A stretch of 37,252 nucleotides of DNA from a virus. Taxonomy: Duplodnaviria > Heunggongvirae > Uroviricota > Caudoviricetes. The notes under the pieces were generated by a model that worked only from the letters and a program-made list of their open reading frames with translations, was not told the origin of the DNA and did no database searches. Numbering within the stretch: the stretch's first letter is position 1; each line of letters begins with the position of its first letter. The DNA is taken from positions 1 to 37,252 of the IMG/VR virus record IMGVR_UViG_2563366981_000002. One strand, 5' to 3'. Positions 1 to 23,534 of this stretch are shown here, piece after piece. Made by a program: the position numbers and the translations under genes.

Positions 1-1053
1 TTACGGGGTAATGCCAACCGCTGCCGCCACTTTGTCGCCACTTGGCAGCGTTGCCAGAGGATTGAAACGGAGCGCCGTTTCCAGATGATCCGGTGCCAGA
101 TGTGCGTAACGCATCGTCATTTTTATATCGTGATGTCCGAGAATTTTTTGTAAGGCCAGGATGTTTCCACCCGACATCATGAAGTGCGCTGCAAACGTAT
201 GGCGCAGAACGTGTGTGAGTTGACCGCGAGGGAGCACGATAGACGTTTTTTCCATCACGGATAAAAATTGAAAATAGCAGTCTGTGAAGAAATTGAACCC
301 ATCAAGCGCCATGATCTCTTCGTAAAGCTCTTTACTGATAGGGATGCTTCTGTTTTTCTTCCCCTTCGTTCTTACAAAGGTAATTCGGTATTTGGTCACC
401 TGTGAACGAGTAAGATTTACGGCTTCTCGCCAGCGTGCGCCTGTGCTTAAGCATATCTTAACTACCAGTGCCAGAATTGGGTCCTGACGTTTGCAATCAG
501 CCAGTAATTCAACAATCTGCTCATGGGTAAGCCATGCCATCTCTTTTTCTGCGATGGTGAATTTTCGCATGTTCTCCAGTGGGTTCGGATACGACCATTC
601 GCCCAGGCGGGATAGTTCGCTAAAAACACTACTAAGATAGCTTTGCTCCAGGTTAATGGTGACCGGGCTTGCTCCTTTCTTCCATTTTTCGCTGAAGTAG
701 ATCTCTCCTGTCAGGCGTTTATCTCGATAGTGGGCAAACATTTTAGAGGTGAGATCGGTTGCAAGGGGATTGCCCAGAGCGTCAACTATCAACAGCAATT
801 TGTCATAGACATGCTGCCCAGCTGTCAGAGATTTACCATGTAGTTTGAACCATAGCTCAACCACGTCTTTCAGTGTTCGACGATCCACTGATTCACCCAG
901 CCAGGGCTTTGCTTCGGTTTCTTCCATCGTGTGACGCTCAAAAGCCAGAGCTTCACCTTTGGTGGCGAATTGTTTACGCACACGACGTCCACTACGTCCC
1001 GCGGGGTAACATTCGCATAGCCATTTTCCTGTGGTGAGTTTTCGTACTGCCAT
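1..1053 (-). CDS. int: tyrosine integrase (P2-type)
   Basis: 350-aa ORF; C-terminal catalytic signature (...HVLRHTFAAHFMMSGGNILALQKILGHHDIKMTMRYAHL...); first gene at prophage left end; RBS GGAGGG 9 nt upstream of ATG. Confidence 0.9.
   Translation of the reverse strand: MAVRKLTTGKWLCECYPAGRSGRRVRKQFATKGEALAFERHTMEETEAKPWLGESVDRRTLKDVVELWFKLHGKSLTAGQHVYDKLLLIVDALGNPLATDLTSKMFAHYRDKRLTGEIYFSEKWKKGASPVTINLEQSYLSSVFSELSRLGEWSYPNPLENMRKFTIAEKEMAWLTHEQIVELLADCKRQDPILALVVKICLSTGARWREAVNLTRSQVTKYRITFVRTKGKKNRSIPISKELYEEIMALDGFNFFTDCYFQFLSVMEKTSIVLPRGQLTHVLRHTFAAHFMMSGGNILALQKILGHHDIKMTMRYAHLAPDHLETALRFNPLATLPSGDKVAAAVGITP
19..40. repeat. putative attachment core copy (attL), inside the 3' end of int
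   Basis: CGCTGCCGCCACTTTGTCGCCA; matches 34398-34419 with one mismatch. Confidence 0.55.
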
Positions 1054-1077
1054 AAAAAATGCCCTCCAGTGGAGAGC

Positions 1078-1106
1078 ATTTTTACTGTATGTATAACCAG
1101 TGTCAA
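1078..1106 (-). promoter_or_regulatory. putative int promoter with operator-like dyad
   Basis: Minus strand reads TTGACA, 16-nt spacer, TAAAAA; the spacer contains CTG-N10-CAG (plus strand TACTGTATGTATAACCAGTG, 1083-1102), resembling a LexA box. Confidence 0.35.
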
Positions 1107-1142
1107 TGTATATGAATTAAGATTCATACATTGAGGTTAATT

Positions 1143-1748
1143 TTATCTTTCTACTTCCCAGCGTAGAGATTGCATTAACATAGCATAAATATTGAACAGG
1201 AAAGTTTTTAAAGTTAATACAAGGAACACTGCACTGCTTCCTACGAGTATATATAGTATTTGAACTCCAACAACTTTAGTGCAATGAGAAAACATTAAGG
1301 CTCTGAGTAATTTTGTAGCCAATCCATTTTCTTGCCCGAAAAGAAGGACTAAAAGATAGATAACAGACCAAAATATGAAATATATAAATACTCTCATAAA
1401 TACACCATAAACATATTTTAAGTAACTTATCCCGTATAATGGATGCTTATACTCCATTAATGAAAGGAAAAGTTCAGGTTTATTTATGGTTGCAAATATT
1501 GTAAATCCAGTAATTAAAAAACCTAATGTTGTTGTAGTGAATCCGAATACTAAAGGTGTCCATTGTCTAATAGATGAAATTAACTCTGGTGATGAAGATA
1601 GACAAAAAGCATTAATAGATAATAATATCACTAACAATAATGTGAAATAAAAGTCAAATGAATTGACCTTTATTTTTTTAGTTAATTTGTAAACATCATG
1701 CAAAGATCGCTCTTTGGTCAGATCTTCTGGGTTGAATGTATATTTCAT
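1143..1748 (-). CDS. accessory small membrane protein (about four predicted TM helices); function unknown
   Basis: 201-aa ORF with four hydrophobic segments; AT-rich; start 1 nt after the stop of the upstream ORF (translational coupling). Confidence 0.7.
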   Translation of the reverse strand: MKYTFNPEDLTKERSLHDVYKLTKKIKVNSFDFYFTLLLVILLSINAFCLSSSPELISSIRQWTPLVFGFTTTTLGFLITGFTIFATINKPELFLSLMEYKHPLYGISYLKYVYGVFMRVFIYFIFWSVIYLLVLLFGQENGLATKLLRALMFSHCTKVVGVQILYILVGSSAVFLVLTLKTFLFNIYAMLMQSLRWEVER

Positions 1749-1749
1749 A

Positions 1750-2799
1750 CTATAGCCACCTAGAAATTATTGATGTTAACTTGGAAAAAATTTTAGTATA
1801 ATCTTCACGTTCTGGAATAATAATATTTCCTTCATCCTTTAATTCTGTGAATGCAGAATACGCCTCTTGAGCAGCTCTTTCCAAATCAGAACTAAGTTGT
1901 GGCCTTGATGCTTTTAGAGTAAAACTATCATTATTCCCTGATAGCCTTGCTCCGTGTTCATCTTTACCACTGATAATTACTTTAGAGTTGGCCATTCGGG
2001 TTGCACTTGTTGTTTTTTGAATGACGGCCTCAGAATTTAAACCATCTTCATTTTTATTTGTGTATACTAATTGAGCTTTACTACTATTAAGTTCTTCTTT
2101 TTCTTGTTCAATTTTCCTCCAGAAGCCATCAAGAGATATATTTTCACTATTTGTTGGCAATAACTCAATTGATAATCTATTAACAACAGAAAAGAGTTCA
2201 ACAAAATTGCTCAATGATCTTGGGTCTGTTAAGGGGGTAACCCGTAATTTGGGGGCTCCTAGTTTACGATAAATATCTTTTTTATACAGTCGATCAATGT
2301 ATGATTTTTTCTTTCTAATTCTTTTATTTTTTTTTACTTCGTAATCCACAAAAGAATTATATCGCTGTGCAAGGCAATACTTGCTAGTATTTTCAAATTC
2401 TTCTAGGGTAGGGGCTCCAGAAACCTCTTTGCAAAGCATTAATCTGTGCTCATTAAGCATAAGAATAAAAATAGAGCTGGGGTGACTTTCTAGCGTCCTG
2501 TGATCTCGAATTAATTGACCATCTTGAAATATTTGATCTCGTTTAAATATGGTCTTTTTTATAATGCGGCCACACAATGCAATTGTTGGAACTATAGGAC
2601 CAATAAAATCTGAATCTGTAGTATCTAACGTAATAATTTTTGTGTCAGTAAAGAAATATTCTGTATCTTTAAATTTTCTAACGTATTTTTGTGCGAAAAA
2701 TGAAGGAAAAACAATGCAATCAAAAGCATCTAAGAGAACTTTGTCCTCTCCAAAATTTAAGGTATAGTTTGCAAATTCAATAGTTTTCGTAAAGCTCAT
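1750..2799 (-). CDS. accessory soluble protein, 349 aa, no motif recognised
   Basis: Long ORF, AT-rich, Lys/Asn/Ile-rich; start 2 nt after the repressor stop; between repressor and int where P2 has no gene. Confidence 0.7.
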   Translation of the reverse strand: MSFTKTIEFANYTLNFGEDKVLLDAFDCIVFPSFFAQKYVRKFKDTEYFFTDTKIITLDTTDSDFIGPIVPTIALCGRIIKKTIFKRDQIFQDGQLIRDHRTLESHPSSIFILMLNEHRLMLCKEVSGAPTLEEFENTSKYCLAQRYNSFVDYEVKKNKRIRKKKSYIDRLYKKDIYRKLGAPKLRVTPLTDPRSLSNFVELFSVVNRLSIELLPTNSENISLDGFWRKIEQEKEELNSSKAQLVYTNKNEDGLNSEAVIQKTTSATRMANSKVIISGKDEHGARLSGNNDSFTLKASRPQLSSDLERAAQEAYSAFTELKDEGNIIIPEREDYTKIFSKLTSIISRWL

Positions 2800-2801
2800 T
2801 G

Positions 2802-3743
2802 TTAAACCCTTTTTCTAATTATTCCTTTAACTTTATTATTAAATTCCAAATCTTCTTTATCGCATTCAAAGCTATATTTTGTGTTTTCAACGCGGATGCG
2901 ATTGTTTGGAAGTTTAAATATGTCTCTAAAAGTAAATTCTCCGTTAATAGATACTAACCATAGACCATCGCTAAGATACTCCTCTTTGCTAATGATATAT
3001 GAATCATTTGCGGAATTAACTATATAGGGATGTTTTAGATTTTGAGGTAAAATTTCGCTCGAAACGATTAATTCTCTTTGATCAGTAAGTTTGCCGTCAC
3101 GTAGATCATAGCAGTCTAATGTAAGCAACCCACTTAGCTTTGTTTGATTGGAATGCCCCTTACCAAAAGATAACCACTCGAGAGACACTCCTGTTTCTAA
3201 ACAGCATTGGATGATCCAGTCTGCCGGAAAAATGTCTCGCATGTATCGTGTAGCTAATGTGCTTTTTGAGATACCAAGGTGATCGGCTAAGGCTTGGCGC
3301 GTTTTGTAACCGTAAGCCTTAACAATTCGCTCTATTGCTGCTTTACCCCCTCGAGTGAAATCCATGTGGTTTTCATTATCGAACTTTATCGTGGGGGTGT
3401 GAACTTCATTGCAAAATTCATCTGCAGACTGTTTTTCAGCATGCCGTTCTGGCGAAGGAACTGGCACTCCTTCTTCAGCATCTAAACCAAATGCTAACCA
3501 TTCGATTGATGCGCCAGTTTCCATTGAACATATAACAACCCAATCAGCAGGGAAGGTATCGCGTGCATATCTGTTAGCCATTGTACTTTGTGAAATACCA
3601 AGGTGGTTACAGAATGCTTGGCGTGATTTGAAACCATAGGCCATGAGTATTCTCTCAATGACTTTTTGCCCTCCTCGATTCTGCATGACCATGGCTTTCA
3701 GATGATCTTCAATATGGCGAAATGTGATTTTATTAGTTGACAT
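2802..3743 (-). CDS. CI-type immunity repressor with tandem duplicated HTH domain and S24/LexA-like C-terminal domain
   Basis: Two internal repeats (…ERILMAYGFKSRQAFCNHLGISQSTMANRYARDTFPADWVVICSMETGASIEWLAFG / …ERIVKAYGYKTRQALADHLGISKSTLATRYMRDIFPADWIIQCCLETGVSLEWLSFG) resembling the 186 CI N-terminal fold; C-terminus has GEFTF motif like lambda CI; divergent from Apl/Cox-like gene. Confidence 0.75.
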   Translation of the reverse strand: MSTNKITFRHIEDHLKAMVMQNRGGQKVIERILMAYGFKSRQAFCNHLGISQSTMANRYARDTFPADWVVICSMETGASIEWLAFGLDAEEGVPVPSPERHAEKQSADEFCNEVHTPTIKFDNENHMDFTRGGKAAIERIVKAYGYKTRQALADHLGISKSTLATRYMRDIFPADWIIQCCLETGVSLEWLSFGKGHSNQTKLSGLLTLDCYDLRDGKLTDQRELIVSSEILPQNLKHPYIVNSANDSYIISKEEYLSDGLWLVSINGEFTFRDIFKLPNNRIRVENTKYSFECDKEDLEFNNKVKGIIRKRV

Positions 3744-4085: not shown

Positions 4086-4595
4086 ATGTTTGATTACCAA
4101 GTTTCCAAACATCCACATTTTGATGAAGCCTGTCGTGCATTCGCGCTGCGCCACAACCTGGTGCAACTGGCAGAACGTGCTGGCATGAATGTGCAGATTC
4201 TGCGGAACAAGCTGAACCCGGCTCAACCTCATTTATTAACCGCACCAGAAATCTGGCTGCTTACCGATCTGACTGAAGATTCAACGCTGGTAGATGGTTT
4301 TCTGGCTCAGATTCACTGCCTGCCATGCGTACCGATTAATGAGGTGGCAAAAGAGAAACTGCCACATTACGTCATGAGTGCAACCGCAGAGATCGGGCGT
4401 GTTGCTGCAGGTGCGGTATCTGGCGATGTAAAAACCAGTGCAGGTCGTCGTGATGCTATCAGCAGCATTAACTCTGTTACACGACTGATGGCGCTGGCTG
4501 CTGTTTCATTGCAGGCCCGTTTACAGGCTAATCCTGCGATGGCGAGTGCAGTTGATACCGTGACTGGCCTCGGTGCTTCATTCGGTTTGCTGTGA
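4086..4595 (+). CDS. CII-like lysogeny establishment regulator (186 type)
   Basis: 169 aa from ATG at 4086 ([24 protein letters not shown]...); position after Apl-like gene; recalled resemblance to 186 CII. Confidence 0.65.
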
Positions 4596-9541: not shown

Positions 9542-9561
9542 TACTGTAATTATAAACAGTG
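9542..9561. promoter_or_regulatory. LexA (SOS) box
   Basis: TACTGTAATTATAAACAGTG = CTGT-N8-ACAG; a weaker second dyad follows at about 9560-9577; lies upstream of ATG 9603. Confidence 0.6.
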
Positions 9562-9602
9562 GTTATGTATACAGTATTTCTTGTGGTGTCATAGGAGGAA
9601 AG

Positions 9603-9791
9603 ATGCAGGACTATTTTTTGGAGTCTTTGAAGCTCCAGCGCATTGATTTTTTTCTTAAGCTTGTAGCGGCTAGTGAGTGTAGTGATGAAGAGAAGGGGCT
9701 GGCTTTGCAGTGGGTTTCTGAACTAACAGATGAACTCATGGCAAAAATCAGAACCCACGAATACAACCGCTCAATGGATGTCATCAGTTGA
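9603..9791 (+). CDS. small SOS-regulated protein (possible Tum-like antirepressor; inference)
   Basis: 62-aa ORF with AGGAGG RBS directly downstream of the LexA box; the longer 9501 start is rejected because the box lies inside it. Confidence 0.5.
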   Translation: MQDYFLESLKLQRIDFFLKLVAASECSDEEKGLALQWVSELTDELMAKIRTHEYNRSMDVIS

Positions 9792-9801
9792 GGTGACTTT
9801 T

Positions 9802-10035
9802 ATGCGCATTGAAATAATGATCGATAAAGAGCAGAAGATTAGCCAGTCTACCCTGGACGCCCTTGAATCCGAGCTTTACCGTAATCTGCGCCCCCTGTAT
9901 CCCAAAACGGTAATTCGTATCCGCAAAGGTAGCTCTAACGGTGTGGAACTGACCGGACTGCAACTGGACGAAGAAAGGAAGCAAGTGATGAAAATTATGC
10001 AGAAGGTGTGGGAAGACGACAGCTGGCTGCATTAA
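9802..10035 (+). CDS. DinI-like protein
   Basis: 77-aa protein (MRIEIMIDKEQKISQSTLDALESELYRNL...WEDDSWLH) with DinI-like length and motifs; GAGGTG RBS. Confidence 0.8.
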   Translation: MRIEIMIDKEQKISQSTLDALESELYRNLRPLYPKTVIRIRKGSSNGVELTGLQLDEERKQVMKIMQKVWEDDSWLH

Positions 10036-10157: not shown

Positions 10158-10877
10158 ATGACAACTATTAACAAGCATGGGTTATCTAGAACAATTCCTG
10201 AACCTGTAAAACTGGAGGTAAGGCAGCGCTGTGGCTTTGGTTGCGTTGTTTGTGCTTCTCCCATTGTTGAGTATGAGCATGTAATTCCCACATACGCTGA
10301 TGCAAAGGAGCACTCTCCAAATGCAATAGCACTACTTTGTCCTACGTGCCATGCGAAAGTAACGAAACGTCTTTACTCTAAAGAGAAAATAATTAAAGCA
10401 ATGGAATCTCCTGCAGCCTTACAAAAAGGGAATGTGGCCGATATATTGGACTTTTCTGATAGGCATCCAACAATAATATTTGGTGGTGCGACGTTTGAAT
10501 CCTGTACTGTACCAATAATGTTTCAAAATGAGCCATTGTTAACCATTGAAAAAGAAAATAATGCTTTTCTTATTTCGGGTAAATTTTACGATAGTCAAGG
10601 TATTGTTAATCTTGAATTAATTAAGAATGAGTGGGTTTGTAGTGCAAGGCATTGGGATGTTCAGGTTGTTGGTCCTAGAATAACTATTATAGAAAAAAGG
10701 AAAGGTCCTCGTTTAATTATTAAAGTTGATGCGCCTGAAAGATTGATTGTGGAAAGATTAGATATGTTGGTTAAGGGGACTCGGATTGTAGGAGACGAAC
10801 ACAAGCTAAGAGTCGGTCCACATCAATTTCACAACTGTGGAGTTTCAAATTGCAATATTGGTTTCTGCTTTGGCTAA
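10158..10877 (+). CDS. HNH-endonuclease-domain protein with unknown C-terminal domain
   Basis: N-terminal CGFGCVVC...EYEHVIP...N...CPTCH (CxxC, EH, N, CxxCH HNH signature); markedly AT-rich; adjacent to cos-like motif. Confidence 0.75.
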   Translation: MTTINKHGLSRTIPEPVKLEVRQRCGFGCVVCASPIVEYEHVIPTYADAKEHSPNAIALLCPTCHAKVTKRLYSKEKIIKAMESPAALQKGNVADILDFSDRHPTIIFGGATFESCTVPIMFQNEPLLTIEKENNAFLISGKFYDSQGIVNLELIKNEWVCSARHWDVQVVGPRITIIEKRKGPRLIIKVDAPERLIVERLDMLVKGTRIVGDEHKLRVGPHQFHNCGVSNCNIGFCFG

Positions 10878-21106: not shown

Positions 21107-21685
21107 ATGAACGCACAATTAACCGAAATCATGCGCCTTATCACCAACCTGATCCGCACTGGTGTAGTCACCGAAGTGGACCGGGAACACTGGCTTTGCC
21201 GGGTGAAAACGGGCGACCTTGAAACCAACTGGATTAACTGGCTGACGCTGCGCGCGGGTAATGCCCGCACATGGTGGAAACCATCGGAAGGTGAGCAGGT
21301 GGTGCTACTGAGTCTGGGCGGCAATCTGGAGACGGCCTTTGCGCTGCCCGCTGTCTATTCGAATCAGTTCGCACCACCGTCGACGTCGGCGGACGCCTGC
21401 GTGACAGAACATCCTGACGGTGGCTGGTTTGAATACGAACCCGCCAGTGGGCGCTGGTATGTCAGGGGCATCAAATCAATGGTCATTGAGGCCGCTGACA
21501 ACATCACCATGAAAACCAGTGAGTTTGTACTGGAGGCTGACCGCACGCGCATTAACAGCGAAGTGGTGATCAATGGTGGCGTTACCCAGGGCGGCGGAGC
21601 GATGAGTTCTAACGGGATCGTGGTTGATGCGCATCAGCATACTGGCGTCCTGAAAGGCGGCGATACCACCGGAGGTCCGGTATGA
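21107..21685 (+). CDS. V: baseplate spike / assembly protein V
   Basis: 192 aa, first gene after the late promoter dyad. Confidence 0.8.
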   Translation: MNAQLTEIMRLITNLIRTGVVTEVDREHWLCRVKTGDLETNWINWLTLRAGNARTWWKPSEGEQVVLLSLGGNLETAFALPAVYSNQFAPPSTSADACVTEHPDGGWFEYEPASGRWYVRGIKSMVIEAADNITMKTSEFVLEADRTRINSEVVINGGVTQGGGAMSSNGIVVDAHQHTGVLKGGDTTGGPV

Positions 21686-22041
21686 CGCTTTATAGCGGGA
21701 TGAACAATACCAGCGGTAAAGCTATTACTGATATTGACCATCTGCGCCAGTCGGTGCGGGACATTCTGCTGACACCGCAGGGTAGCCGCATTGCCCGCCG
21801 GGAATATGGTTCCCTGCTGTCGGCTTTAATAGATCAGCCACAAAATCCGGCGTTACGCCTGCAGGTCATGTCGGCTGTGTATGTGGCACTGAGTCGCTGG
21901 GAGCCACGGCTGACGCTGGATTCCATCACCATCAACAGCAATTTTGACGGTTCAATGGTGGTGGAGCTGACCGGGCGGCGGAATAACGGTGTGCCTGTGT
22001 CCCTTTCCGTATCAACAGGAGCAGAGAATGGCAGTGATTGA
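21682..22041 (+). CDS. W: baseplate protein W
   Basis: 119 aa; ATGA overlap with V. Confidence 0.8.
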   Translation: MTLYSGMNNTSGKAITDIDHLRQSVRDILLTPQGSRIARREYGSLLSALIDQPQNPALRLQVMSAVYVALSRWEPRLTLDSITINSNFDGSMVVELTGRRNNGVPVSLSVSTGAENGSD

Positions 22042-22936
22042 CCTTTCGCAGTTGCCTGCGCCGCAGATTGTGGATGTGCCGGACTTTGAGACGCTGCTTG
22101 CCGAACGCAAGGCAGAATTTGTGGCGCTTCATCCGAAAGATGAGCAGGAGGCTGTGATCCGCACGCTGGAACTGGAATCTGAACCCGTCACCAAATTGCT
22201 GCAGGAGAACGCTTACCGTGAGTTGCTTCTGCGCCAGCGCATTAACGAAGCCGCGCAGGCGGTGATGGTGGCTTACGCGATGGGCGGCGATCTGGACCAG
22301 CTCGCTGCCAACTACAACGTGAAACGCCTGACGGTGACGCCTGCTGATGATGACGCTGTGCCGCCCGTTGCAGCTGTGATGGAAAGCGATGAAGCGTTAC
22401 GCCTGCGTGTGCCTGCAGCCTTTGAGGGGCTTTCAGTTGCGGGGCCAACTGCAGCTTATGAATTTCATGCCCGAAGCGCCGACGGTCGGGTGGCGGATGC
22501 CAGTGCAACCAGTCCGGCACCTGCAGAGGTGGTGCTGACAGTCCTTAGCCGCGAAGGCGACGGAACAGCAGAAAAAGACCTGCTGGATGTGGTGGAAAAA
22601 GCCCTGAACAGTGAGAACGTCCGCCCGGTGGCTGACCGTCTGACGGTTCGCAGTGCAGAAATCATCCCGTACCGTGTGGAAGCCACCATTTTTCTCTATC
22701 CGGGACCGGAAGCGGAGCCGGTAATGGCAGCGGCAAAAGCCAGCCTGCAGAAGTACATCGCCAGTCAGACGCGGCTTGGTCGGGATATTCGCCGTAGTGC
22801 CATTTTTGCCGCCCTGCATGTTGAGGGGGTTCAACGTGTGGAGCTGGCTTCACCGCTGGCGGATGTGGTCCTGAACAAAACACAGGCCGCATCATGTACG
22901 CAGTGGAGCGTAACCAACGGAGGAACGGATGAATAG
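22028..22936 (+). CDS. J: baseplate protein J
   Basis: Internal ATG at 22028 (MAVIDLSQLPAPQIV) with GGAG RBS. Confidence 0.85.
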   Translation: MAVIDLSQLPAPQIVDVPDFETLLAERKAEFVALHPKDEQEAVIRTLELESEPVTKLLQENAYRELLLRQRINEAAQAVMVAYAMGGDLDQLAANYNVKRLTVTPADDDAVPPVAAVMESDEALRLRVPAAFEGLSVAGPTAAYEFHARSADGRVADASATSPAPAEVVLTVLSREGDGTAEKDLLDVVEKALNSENVRPVADRLTVRSAEIIPYRVEATIFLYPGPEAEPVMAAAKASLQKYIASQTRLGRDIRRSAIFAALHVEGVQRVELASPLADVVLNKTQAASCTQWSVTNGGTDE

Positions 22937-23534
22937 TCTGCTGCCACCGGGTTCAACTTCACTGGAGCGCCGACTGGCGCAAACCTGCAGCGGGATTTCT
23001 GATCTGCAGGTGCCGCTTCGTGACTTGTGGAATCCGGCAACCTGTCCGGTCAGTTTCCTGCCTTATCTCGCCTGGGCGTTCTCTGTGGATCGCTGGGACG
23101 AGGGCTGGACAGAAAGCGTCAAACGCCAGGTAGTGAAGGATGCTTTTTATATTCATCAGCACAAAGGAACCACCAGTGCCGTACGGCGGGTGGTGGAGCC
23201 GTTCGGCTTCCTGATCCGCATTATTGAGTGGTGGCAGACCGGAGAAACACCGGGCACGTTTCGCCTGGATATCGGCGTGCAGGACCAGGGCATCACTGAA
23301 GATACCTATCTGGAACTTGAGCGGCTGATAAGCGATGCCAAACCATGTAGCCGTCACATGATCGGCATGTCCATCAATCTGCAGACCAGCGGTCCGCATT
23401 GGGTGGGGGCCGCCAGCTATCTTGGCGAAGAAATCACGATCTATCCGTATATCAACGAAACAATTATTTCCGGCGGCACCGCGCATGAAGGCGGGGCGGT
23501 CCATGTTATTGACACAATGAGAGTGAATCCATGA
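22929..23534 (+). CDS. I: baseplate protein I
   Basis: 201 aa following J. Confidence 0.8.
   Translation: MNSLLPPGSTSLERRLAQTCSGISDLQVPLRDLWNPATCPVSFLPYLAWAFSVDRWDEGWTESVKRQVVKDAFYIHQHKGTTSAVRRVVEPFGFLIRIIEWWQTGETPGTFRLDIGVQDQGITEDTYLELERLISDAKPCSRHMIGMSINLQTSGPHWVGAASYLGEEITIYPYINETIISGGTAHEGGAVHVIDTMRVNP

Follow-up and report, generated by a model that had tools for sequence, protein, structure and literature searches.

How is the integrase gene expressed in a 186-like prophage in which int no longer adjoins the repressor gene cI? In P2- and 186-type phages, int is normally read through from the repressor promoter, and in 186 itself cI overlaps int by one base (record positions 22433..23011 and 21423..22433), with no promoter annotated between them. 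We examined this question in a complete 186-like (Peduoviridae) prophage, the 37,252-nucleotide virus record IMGVR_UViG_2563366981_000002 (hereafter, the window), in which two low-GC cargo ORFs separate cI from int. A sequence-only reading had proposed that int has its own promoter here, with a LexA-box-like dyad in the spacer, and that such an SOS- or repressor-gated promoter, placed after the inserted cassette, would decouple int from cassette expression. Our analysis indicates that a compact region in front of int carries predicted binding sites for the host DNA-damage repressor LexA and for the phage lysogeny activator CII, as well as a hairpin containing the Shine-Dalgarno (SD) sequence, and that integrase is probably made only on infection or after DNA damage. 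The features are listed in Table 1. Beyond cI, the gene order continues with an apl/cox-like ORF, cII, the replication gene A, a DinI-like tum and the late genes. The first 4.1 kb of the window are 99.1% identical to Klebsiella phage 4LV2017, and bases 600-1600 are 100% identical to Escherichia coli Combat13F7.

Table 1. Positions of the int control region and related features in the window. Binding sites, the promoter and the transcription start are predicted from sequence.
Feature	Position	Strand	Description
int	1..1053	-	Tyrosine integrase, 350 aa; ATG 1053..1051, stop codon 3..1; Pfam Int_N 5e-32, Phage_integrase 7e-22; homologues align from residue 1
Control module (P_int)	1054-1131	-	Comprises the elements in the next seven rows
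U-run	1054..1060	-	ATTTTTT on the int strand, between the hairpin and the ATG
Hairpin	1055..1083	-	AAAAATGCTCTCC-ACT-GGAGGGCATTTTT; core stem 1077..1071 paired with 1067..1061; right arm holds SD GGAGG (1067..1063)
Transcription start (inferred)	1070..1072	-	7-8 nt after the -10 hexamer, at the end of the hairpin's left arm or in the loop
-10 element	1078..1084	-	TAAAAA (1084..1079) after the 16-nt spacer CTGGTTATACATACAG (1100..1085), or AAAAAT (1083..1078) after a 17-nt spacer
LexA box	1083..1102		TACTGTATGTATAACCAGTG on the plus strand (CTG-N10-CAG); fills the spacer and overlaps both hexamers by 2 nt
-35 element	1101..1106	-	TTGACA
186-CII-type site	1106..1131		On the int strand ATGTATG (1131..1125), 12 nt, TATACAT (1112..1106); proximal half-site overlaps the -35 by one base
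Variable cargo	1143..2799	-	Two ORFs, 201 aa (hydrophobic stretches suggest a membrane protein) and 349 aa; GC about 30% against about 47% in the flanks; context, not part of the module
cI	2802..3743	-	186-type repressor with a duplicated HTH domain, head of the lysogenic operon; Pfam Phage_CI_repr 2.5e-57 in two stretches, Phage_CI_C 1e-19
cII	4086..4595	+	Predicted activator of the int promoter; Pfam Phage_CP76 (PF06892) 3e-42; first 27 nt (4086-4112) hold the phage's own pE-type CII site, ATGTTTG-N13-CAAACAT
Two overlapping LexA boxes	9542..9576	+	In a p95-like promoter upstream of tum; 22.0 and 15.6 bits
tum	9730-10035		DinI-like; Pfam DinI 1.3e-22

We first asked whether the proposed promoter and dyad are present and exceed chance. 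The sequence is exactly as the sequence-only reading described, so that its observation is confirmed. A promoter scan preferred the 17-nt spacer, with 10 of 12 hexamer matches. However, promoter-like hexamer pairs are not above chance (14 found against 12.4 +/- 3.6 expected in 4.5 kb), and TAAAAA lacks the conserved final T of a -10 element. The hexamers alone therefore prove nothing. The bare pattern CTGT-N9-CAG is also only weakly enriched (8 found against 4 expected). In contrast, scoring with a LexA weight matrix, a check that had been suggested beforehand, placed the dyad well above chance. The symmetrised matrix was built from 26 E. coli sites drawn from the literature (Lewis 1994; Fernandez de Henestrosa 2000), rather than from a curated file. 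With this matrix, the site scores 23.5 bits, compared with a range of 12.9-27.0 and a median of 20.1 for the training sites, is the top site of the window, and would be expected 0.005 times per shuffled 37 kb. It matches TACTGTATATATATACAGTA at 16 of 20 positions, and its heterology index on our own matrix is about 4.5. The next two sites in the window are the overlapping pair in front of tum, the counterpart of the LexA-controlled p95 promoter annotated in 186. The phage therefore already has an SOS module. Given that the box overlaps both promoter hexamers, a bound LexA dimer would exclude RNA polymerase.

Conservation is what decides the matter. The int 5' end, together with its upstream region as far as about position 1111, occurs in 1119 of 5426 complete E. 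coli genomes, and the promoter allele of the window occurs in 726, including BL21, CFT073, ATCC 8739 and APEC O18. Beyond that point the sequence differs from genome to genome, and other cargo lies between int and cI: an ASCH-domain gene plus two hypothetical genes, HEPN plus DUF262, an ATPase, or a single 72-aa ORF. A second, diverged allele of the upstream region retains TTGAC, a different but equally good CTG-N10-CAG box, and a different hairpin. We then retrieved 77 loci encoding Int homologues, one genome per species. In 40 of the 71 usable loci, a box of at least 12.9 bits lies 27-34 nt upstream of the int ATG, whereas only 7 of 5863 background 100-nt windows reach that score. These loci derive from Escherichia, Klebsiella, Raoultella, Citrobacter, Enterobacter, Kluyvera, Serratia, Yersinia, Rahnella, Pantoea, Pectobacterium, Brenneria, Mixta and other Enterobacterales, although they belong to related phages, and the 40 cases are not independent events. 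In an alignment of 41 LexA-box loci, CTG and ATACAGT are near-invariant (39-41 of 41 sequences) while the centre varies, which is the pattern that LexA recognises. The -35 position reads TTGACC, TTGACA, TTTACA, TTGAAT and similar, and the -10 position reads TTAAAT in 17 of the 41 loci, TAAAAT in 5 and TAAAAA in 4. The accompanying CI repressors are only 40-60% identical to one another, which argues for a conserved host factor rather than a phage repressor.

The distribution of the box also correlates perfectly with gene arrangement. Every LexA-box locus has at least 400 nt, and up to more than 3 kb, of variable cargo between cI and int, and every locus where cI ends within a few bases of the int ATG, as in 186, lacks a box. 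Cargo between cI and int does not by itself require a promoter; in K139-like Vibrio phage, Aeromonas LPM4 and Yersinia YenM_201.16 the cargo is translationally coupled to int. In the Rahnella/Pantoea lineage, the same module precedes an int that lies downstream of gpU-gpD-ogr and after the ogr terminator, where no lysogenic transcript can reach it. The module is therefore a conserved part of int whatever the cargo, and not a secondary addition placed after this particular cassette. With this qualification, the interpretation offered by the sequence-only reading is supported by comparative evidence for every one of its elements, although that reading missed two flanking elements that make this a predicted dual-input, insulated promoter.

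The first of these elements is an inverted repeat directly upstream of the -35. Because its arms are conserved, its interior varies and E. coli homology breaks inside it, we initially considered an RNA or DNA hairpin, or an attC-like recombination site marking the cargo boundary. Folding did not support this reading (median z = -0.67, with only 9 of 45 sequences below -2). Instead, the arms, spacing and position are explained by the CII-binding site annotated at pE in the 186 record, GATGTTTG-N13-CAAACAT. The repeat has one mismatch to ATGTWTG/CAWACAT. The pattern ATGTWT-N13-15-AWACAT occurs exactly twice in the window, here and at the phage's own pE, against 0.05 expected. In 653 kb of retrieved loci, all 54 occurrences lie either 77-85 nt before an int ATG (-109 in one further locus, designated L071) or at the pE position at the start of cII. 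Of the 41 LexA-box loci, 38 have the site with at most 2 mismatches of 14, although the distal half-site is degenerate in a few lineages (3-4 mismatches in loci L017, L074 and L076). The spacer is 12 nt in 21 loci, 13 nt in 19 and 14 nt in 1. The proximal half-site ends 21 nt before the -10 in both 186 pE and P_int, and the site centre is about -48 from the annotated or predicted start. The CII protein encoded in the window is 69% identical to 186 CII. TACAGT was considered as an alternative -10 but was rejected, because it would give a 12-nt spacer and would lie 15-16 nt from the CII half-site, against 21 nt at pE. P_int departs from the weak, activator-dependent core promoter expected of the pE type: it has a consensus -35 (TTGACC or TTTACA in most homologues), which is atypical for an activator-dependent promoter. 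P_int may therefore be active without CII once LexA is removed, so that it is not a simple copy of pE. It looks like a pE-type promoter with a better -35, in which a predicted host LexA operator replaces the CI operator, and would functionally be the 186-family counterpart of lambda pI.

The second element is the hairpin between the -10 and the ATG. It folds at -16.2 kcal/mol (z = -5.2) as an extended 13-bp stem, with the core GCUCUCC-ACU-GGAGGGC followed by AUUUUUU, and in this allele resembles an intrinsic terminator that read-through RNA would meet. An automated terminator scan did not list it, probably because the stem extends into the A and U tracts, but direct folding shows it clearly. 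Among 37 unique homologous leaders, 35 have a hairpin here, with about 24 different left arms (median z = -5.3), which is clear covariation, and 33 of the 35 hold an SD-like motif in the right arm. The U-run is present in the Escherichia/Klebsiella-type alleles and absent in the Rahnella, Yersinia and Serratia alleles, so that the feature common to all is sequestration of the SD. The left arm starts 0-3 nt after the -10 hexamer in nearly all alleles and always ends 7-10 nt after it. A transcript starting at the usual 7th nucleotide would lose at least half of the arm in 32 of 35 cases, and a leader starting at 1072 or 1070 is predicted to be unstructured (-2.1 kcal/mol).

We therefore propose that this region is a self-contained control module for int, which we call P_int. 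In this model, LexA occupies the operator in the lysogen and CII is absent, so P_int is silent; transcripts arriving from cI, the cargo or the late operon would form the hairpin and be terminated, or have their SD sequestered, and int would not be expressed by read-through. After infection, CII would activate P_int as it does pE, supplying Int for integration. On DNA damage, LexA cleavage would derepress P_int together with the tum promoter, supplying Int for excision; Tum would then inactivate CI, and Apl and CII would follow from pR. Transcripts that start at P_int would begin inside the left arm or loop of the hairpin and so have a free SD. What rests directly on sequence and comparison is the presence of the four elements (CII-type site, promoter, LexA box and hairpin), their fixed register, and their conservation or covariation; LexA and CII binding, SOS induction, CII-dependent transcription, the position of the transcription start, termination, and the way the two inputs combine are all inferred. 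A strong LexA operator would also be occupied during ordinary infection, so Int synthesis for lysogenisation depends on an assumption, either that CII-assisted polymerase recruitment competes with LexA or that low leaky expression suffices. Our guess is that CII can override LexA, and that loss of LexA alone suffices because the -35 is near consensus. We consider a functional dedicated promoter very likely, a functional LexA operator likely, and CII activation probable, whereas the hairpin as a bypassed insulator is about as likely as not and is the least secure step. For the model as a whole our confidence is moderate.

Among alternative explanations, the one that survives best concerns only the hairpin and is compatible with LexA and CII control. 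It is possible that the transcription start lies upstream of the hairpin, which would then act on all int mRNA as a translational brake or a stabilising 5' stem-loop. In some alleles, such as that of Rahnella, purines 3-5 nt after the -10 could serve as start sites and would keep much of the left arm, and low Int translation is a reported theme in P2 (Yu et al. 1994). However, given where the left arm lies, a start upstream of the stem would need an unusually short distance from the -10. Less likely, the promoter is repressed by LexA only, with the CII-like repeat a non-functional relic, for example a copy of pE from which P_int evolved, or an UP-like AT-rich element, and with Int for lysogenisation coming from leaky expression. 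The consensus -35 needs no activator, the distal half-site is degenerate in some lineages, and the spacer is 12 rather than 13 nt in half of the loci. Against this are the restriction of the motif to P_int and pE positions, its conservation although its spacer sequence is free to vary, and the shared distance to the -10. It is unlikely that the promoter is activated by CII only, with the dyad bound by something other than LexA, such as a phage repressor, or by nothing. At 186 pE, a CI operator (FR, ATTCAC-N5-GTGAAT) occupies the equivalent core position, which provides a precedent, but the dyad is unlike that operator, scores above the median of the LexA training sites, and is retained across phages with divergent CI proteins. 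Finally, the idea that no functional promoter exists, with int expressed by read-through from pL/pE across the cargo, merely attenuated by the hairpin, and the hexamers and dyad fortuitous, draws on the chance-level hexamers and on the co-transcribed cargo of the Vibrio, Aeromonas and Yersinia P2-like phages, but is very unlikely given the register conserved in 40 species and two genomic contexts, one of them beyond the ogr terminator, and the terminator-like hairpin immediately before the ATG.

Each component has known relatives, and what appears to be new is their combination in front of a P2/186-type int. Coliphage 186 pE has the same activator site and geometry, a homologous CII, and a repressor operator in the promoter core; however, pE drives cI-int, has a poor -35, and has a core operator for phage CI, whereas P_int drives int alone and has a predicted host LexA operator in that place. 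Phage lambda pI shares the logic of a dedicated int promoter switched on by the lysogeny-establishment activator, separate from the repressor operon. However, lambda CII is unrelated to 186 CII (PMC7708051). The pI promoter is not known to have a LexA operator, and lambda controls int after induction through pL and sib retroregulation. The 186 p95 promoter is likewise a LexA operator overlapping a sigma-70 promoter in a 186-type phage, but controls the antirepressor Tum, and no LexA site is annotated near int in 186. The integron promoter PintI (Guerin 2009; Cambray 2011, PMC3108266) also drives a tyrosine-recombinase gene, is overlapped by a LexA box, and lies next to exchangeable cargo. However, IntI belongs to a different recombinase subfamily acting on attC and attI sites, and PintI has no CII input and no SD hairpin; the Cambray et al. 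survey explicitly excluded phage integrases. The locus described here is not an integron, because Int has phage domains and is a P2/186-family integrase, and the repeat next to the cargo is explained as a CII site. A LexA-bound site upstream of a Firmicute phage integrase, confirmed by EMSA (2014, PMC3998124), is a precedent, but involves the Gram-positive motif, Bacillus subtilis LexA and an unrelated integrase, and is a single site without comparative or architectural analysis. Finally, the window Int is 35-57% identical to other Peduoviridae Ints, but in classical P2/186 phages int is expressed by read-through from Pc/pL-pE, abuts or overlaps the repressor gene, and has no promoter of its own. 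Literature searches, limited to open-access papers and so not proof of absence, found no described LexA- or CII-controlled int promoter in P2/186-like phages, no transcription-start or SOS-transcriptome data covering this int in BL21 or CFT073, and no LexA or CII binding data or expression data for this promoter.

If correct, the model would show how a large and common family of prophages times integrase production, by a mechanism that differs from the textbook 186/P2 arrangement and converges on lambda pI and integron PintI. It also gives a mechanistic reason why the cI-int interval can accept arbitrary cargo without disturbing int expression; published work describes the equivalent interval in related P2-like phages as a defence-system hotspot, and neither of the two papers concerned mentions LexA or SOS. 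More tentatively, P_int may be a portable three-layer logic module (activator site, LexA operator, and a terminator/SD-sequestering hairpin that its own transcripts skip by starting inside it), such that Int is produced only on infection or SOS and never by read-through. In this view, freeing int from the lysogenic operon is what allowed the interval to become a hotspot for variable cargo and allowed int to relocate next to ogr in other lineages. The module would then add a phage integrase to the SOS regulon of roughly a fifth of sequenced E. coli, including laboratory and pathogenic strains such as BL21 and CFT073. The start-inside-the-terminator arrangement, if real, is a compact insulator design of interest for synthetic biology.

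Pfam and PADLOC searches with the two cargo ORFs of the window returned no hits, so that this cargo has no recognisable family. An Rfam scan of positions 900-1400 gave only a sub-threshold Phe_leader hit (27 bits against a gathering score of 55), which we attribute to chance. In BL21, the defective prophage that carries this promoter allele also carries a retron St85-family reverse transcriptase.

Predicted LexA boxes were also identified outside the int control region. Two overlapping boxes, TACTGTAATTATAAACAGTG and CAGTGGTTATGTATACAGTA (22.0 and 15.6 bits), are arranged like the boxes of colicin promoters and lie in a p95-like promoter upstream of a small ORF and a DinI-like Tum. A similar box, TACTGTAAATATAAACAGTG, is present in BL21 and CFT073. 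The defective BL21 prophage has truncated cII and A genes and retains an intact P_int module (the predicted int promoter with its control elements) and a tum LexA box. Between tum and the portal gene, this prophage carries a retron St85-family reverse transcriptase and effector. In the window, an ORF with an HNH endonuclease domain lies just downstream of tum, in the interval between A/tum and the portal gene, which is the known major P2 defence hotspot.

The cI repressor of the window is 313 aa long, and has two tandem Phage_CI_repr HTH domains plus the CI C-terminal domain, whereas the 186 repressor has 192 aa. The same long form occurs in CFT073 and in L003 (one of the loci retrieved for comparison), whereas BL21 and another such locus, L002, have the short form (189 aa). 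The cargo next to cI consists of two ORFs of 201 aa and 349 aa, and hydrophobic stretches in the 201-aa product suggest a membrane protein. GC content is about 30%, compared with about 47% in the flanks. Pfam and PADLOC searches returned no hit for either ORF, so we consider this region an uncharacterised cassette in the cI-int hotspot, and possibly an unknown defence system. At the int end of the window, an Rfam search yielded only a sub-threshold match to Phe_leader, with 27.2 bits against a gathering score of 55 (E = 0.019), which we regard as a chance resemblance to a terminator-containing leader.

Positions of the additional features in the window and in the comparison loci
Sequence	Position	Strand	Feature
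Window	1052-1147	-	Sub-threshold Phe_leader match
Window	1143-2799	-	Two cargo ORFs
Window	2802-3743	-	cI repressor
Window	9542-9576		Two overlapping predicted LexA boxes
Window	9730-10035		tum
Window	10158-10877	+	ORF with HNH endonuclease domain
L039 and L033 (Rahnella, Pantoea)	L039 1450-5044; L033 2790-5065		int downstream of gpU-gpD-ogr
L082 (186 record)	3405-3421 (record positions 23404-23420)		CI operator FR in the core of pE
L086 (BL21, NZ_CP010816)	831681-853738 (NZ_CP010816)		Defective prophage

In the lineage represented by the Rahnella and Pantoea loci, int (55-57% identical) lies downstream of gpU-gpD-ogr in the same orientation, after the ogr terminator. It therefore sits at the opposite prophage end from the P2/186 arrangement, and yet it carries the same module of predicted CII box, LexA box and hairpin. 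In 186 itself, the CI operator FR (ATTCAC-N5-GTGAAT) occupies the core of pE at the position where P_int has the LexA box, which suggests that P_int arose from a pE-like promoter by exchange of the operator.
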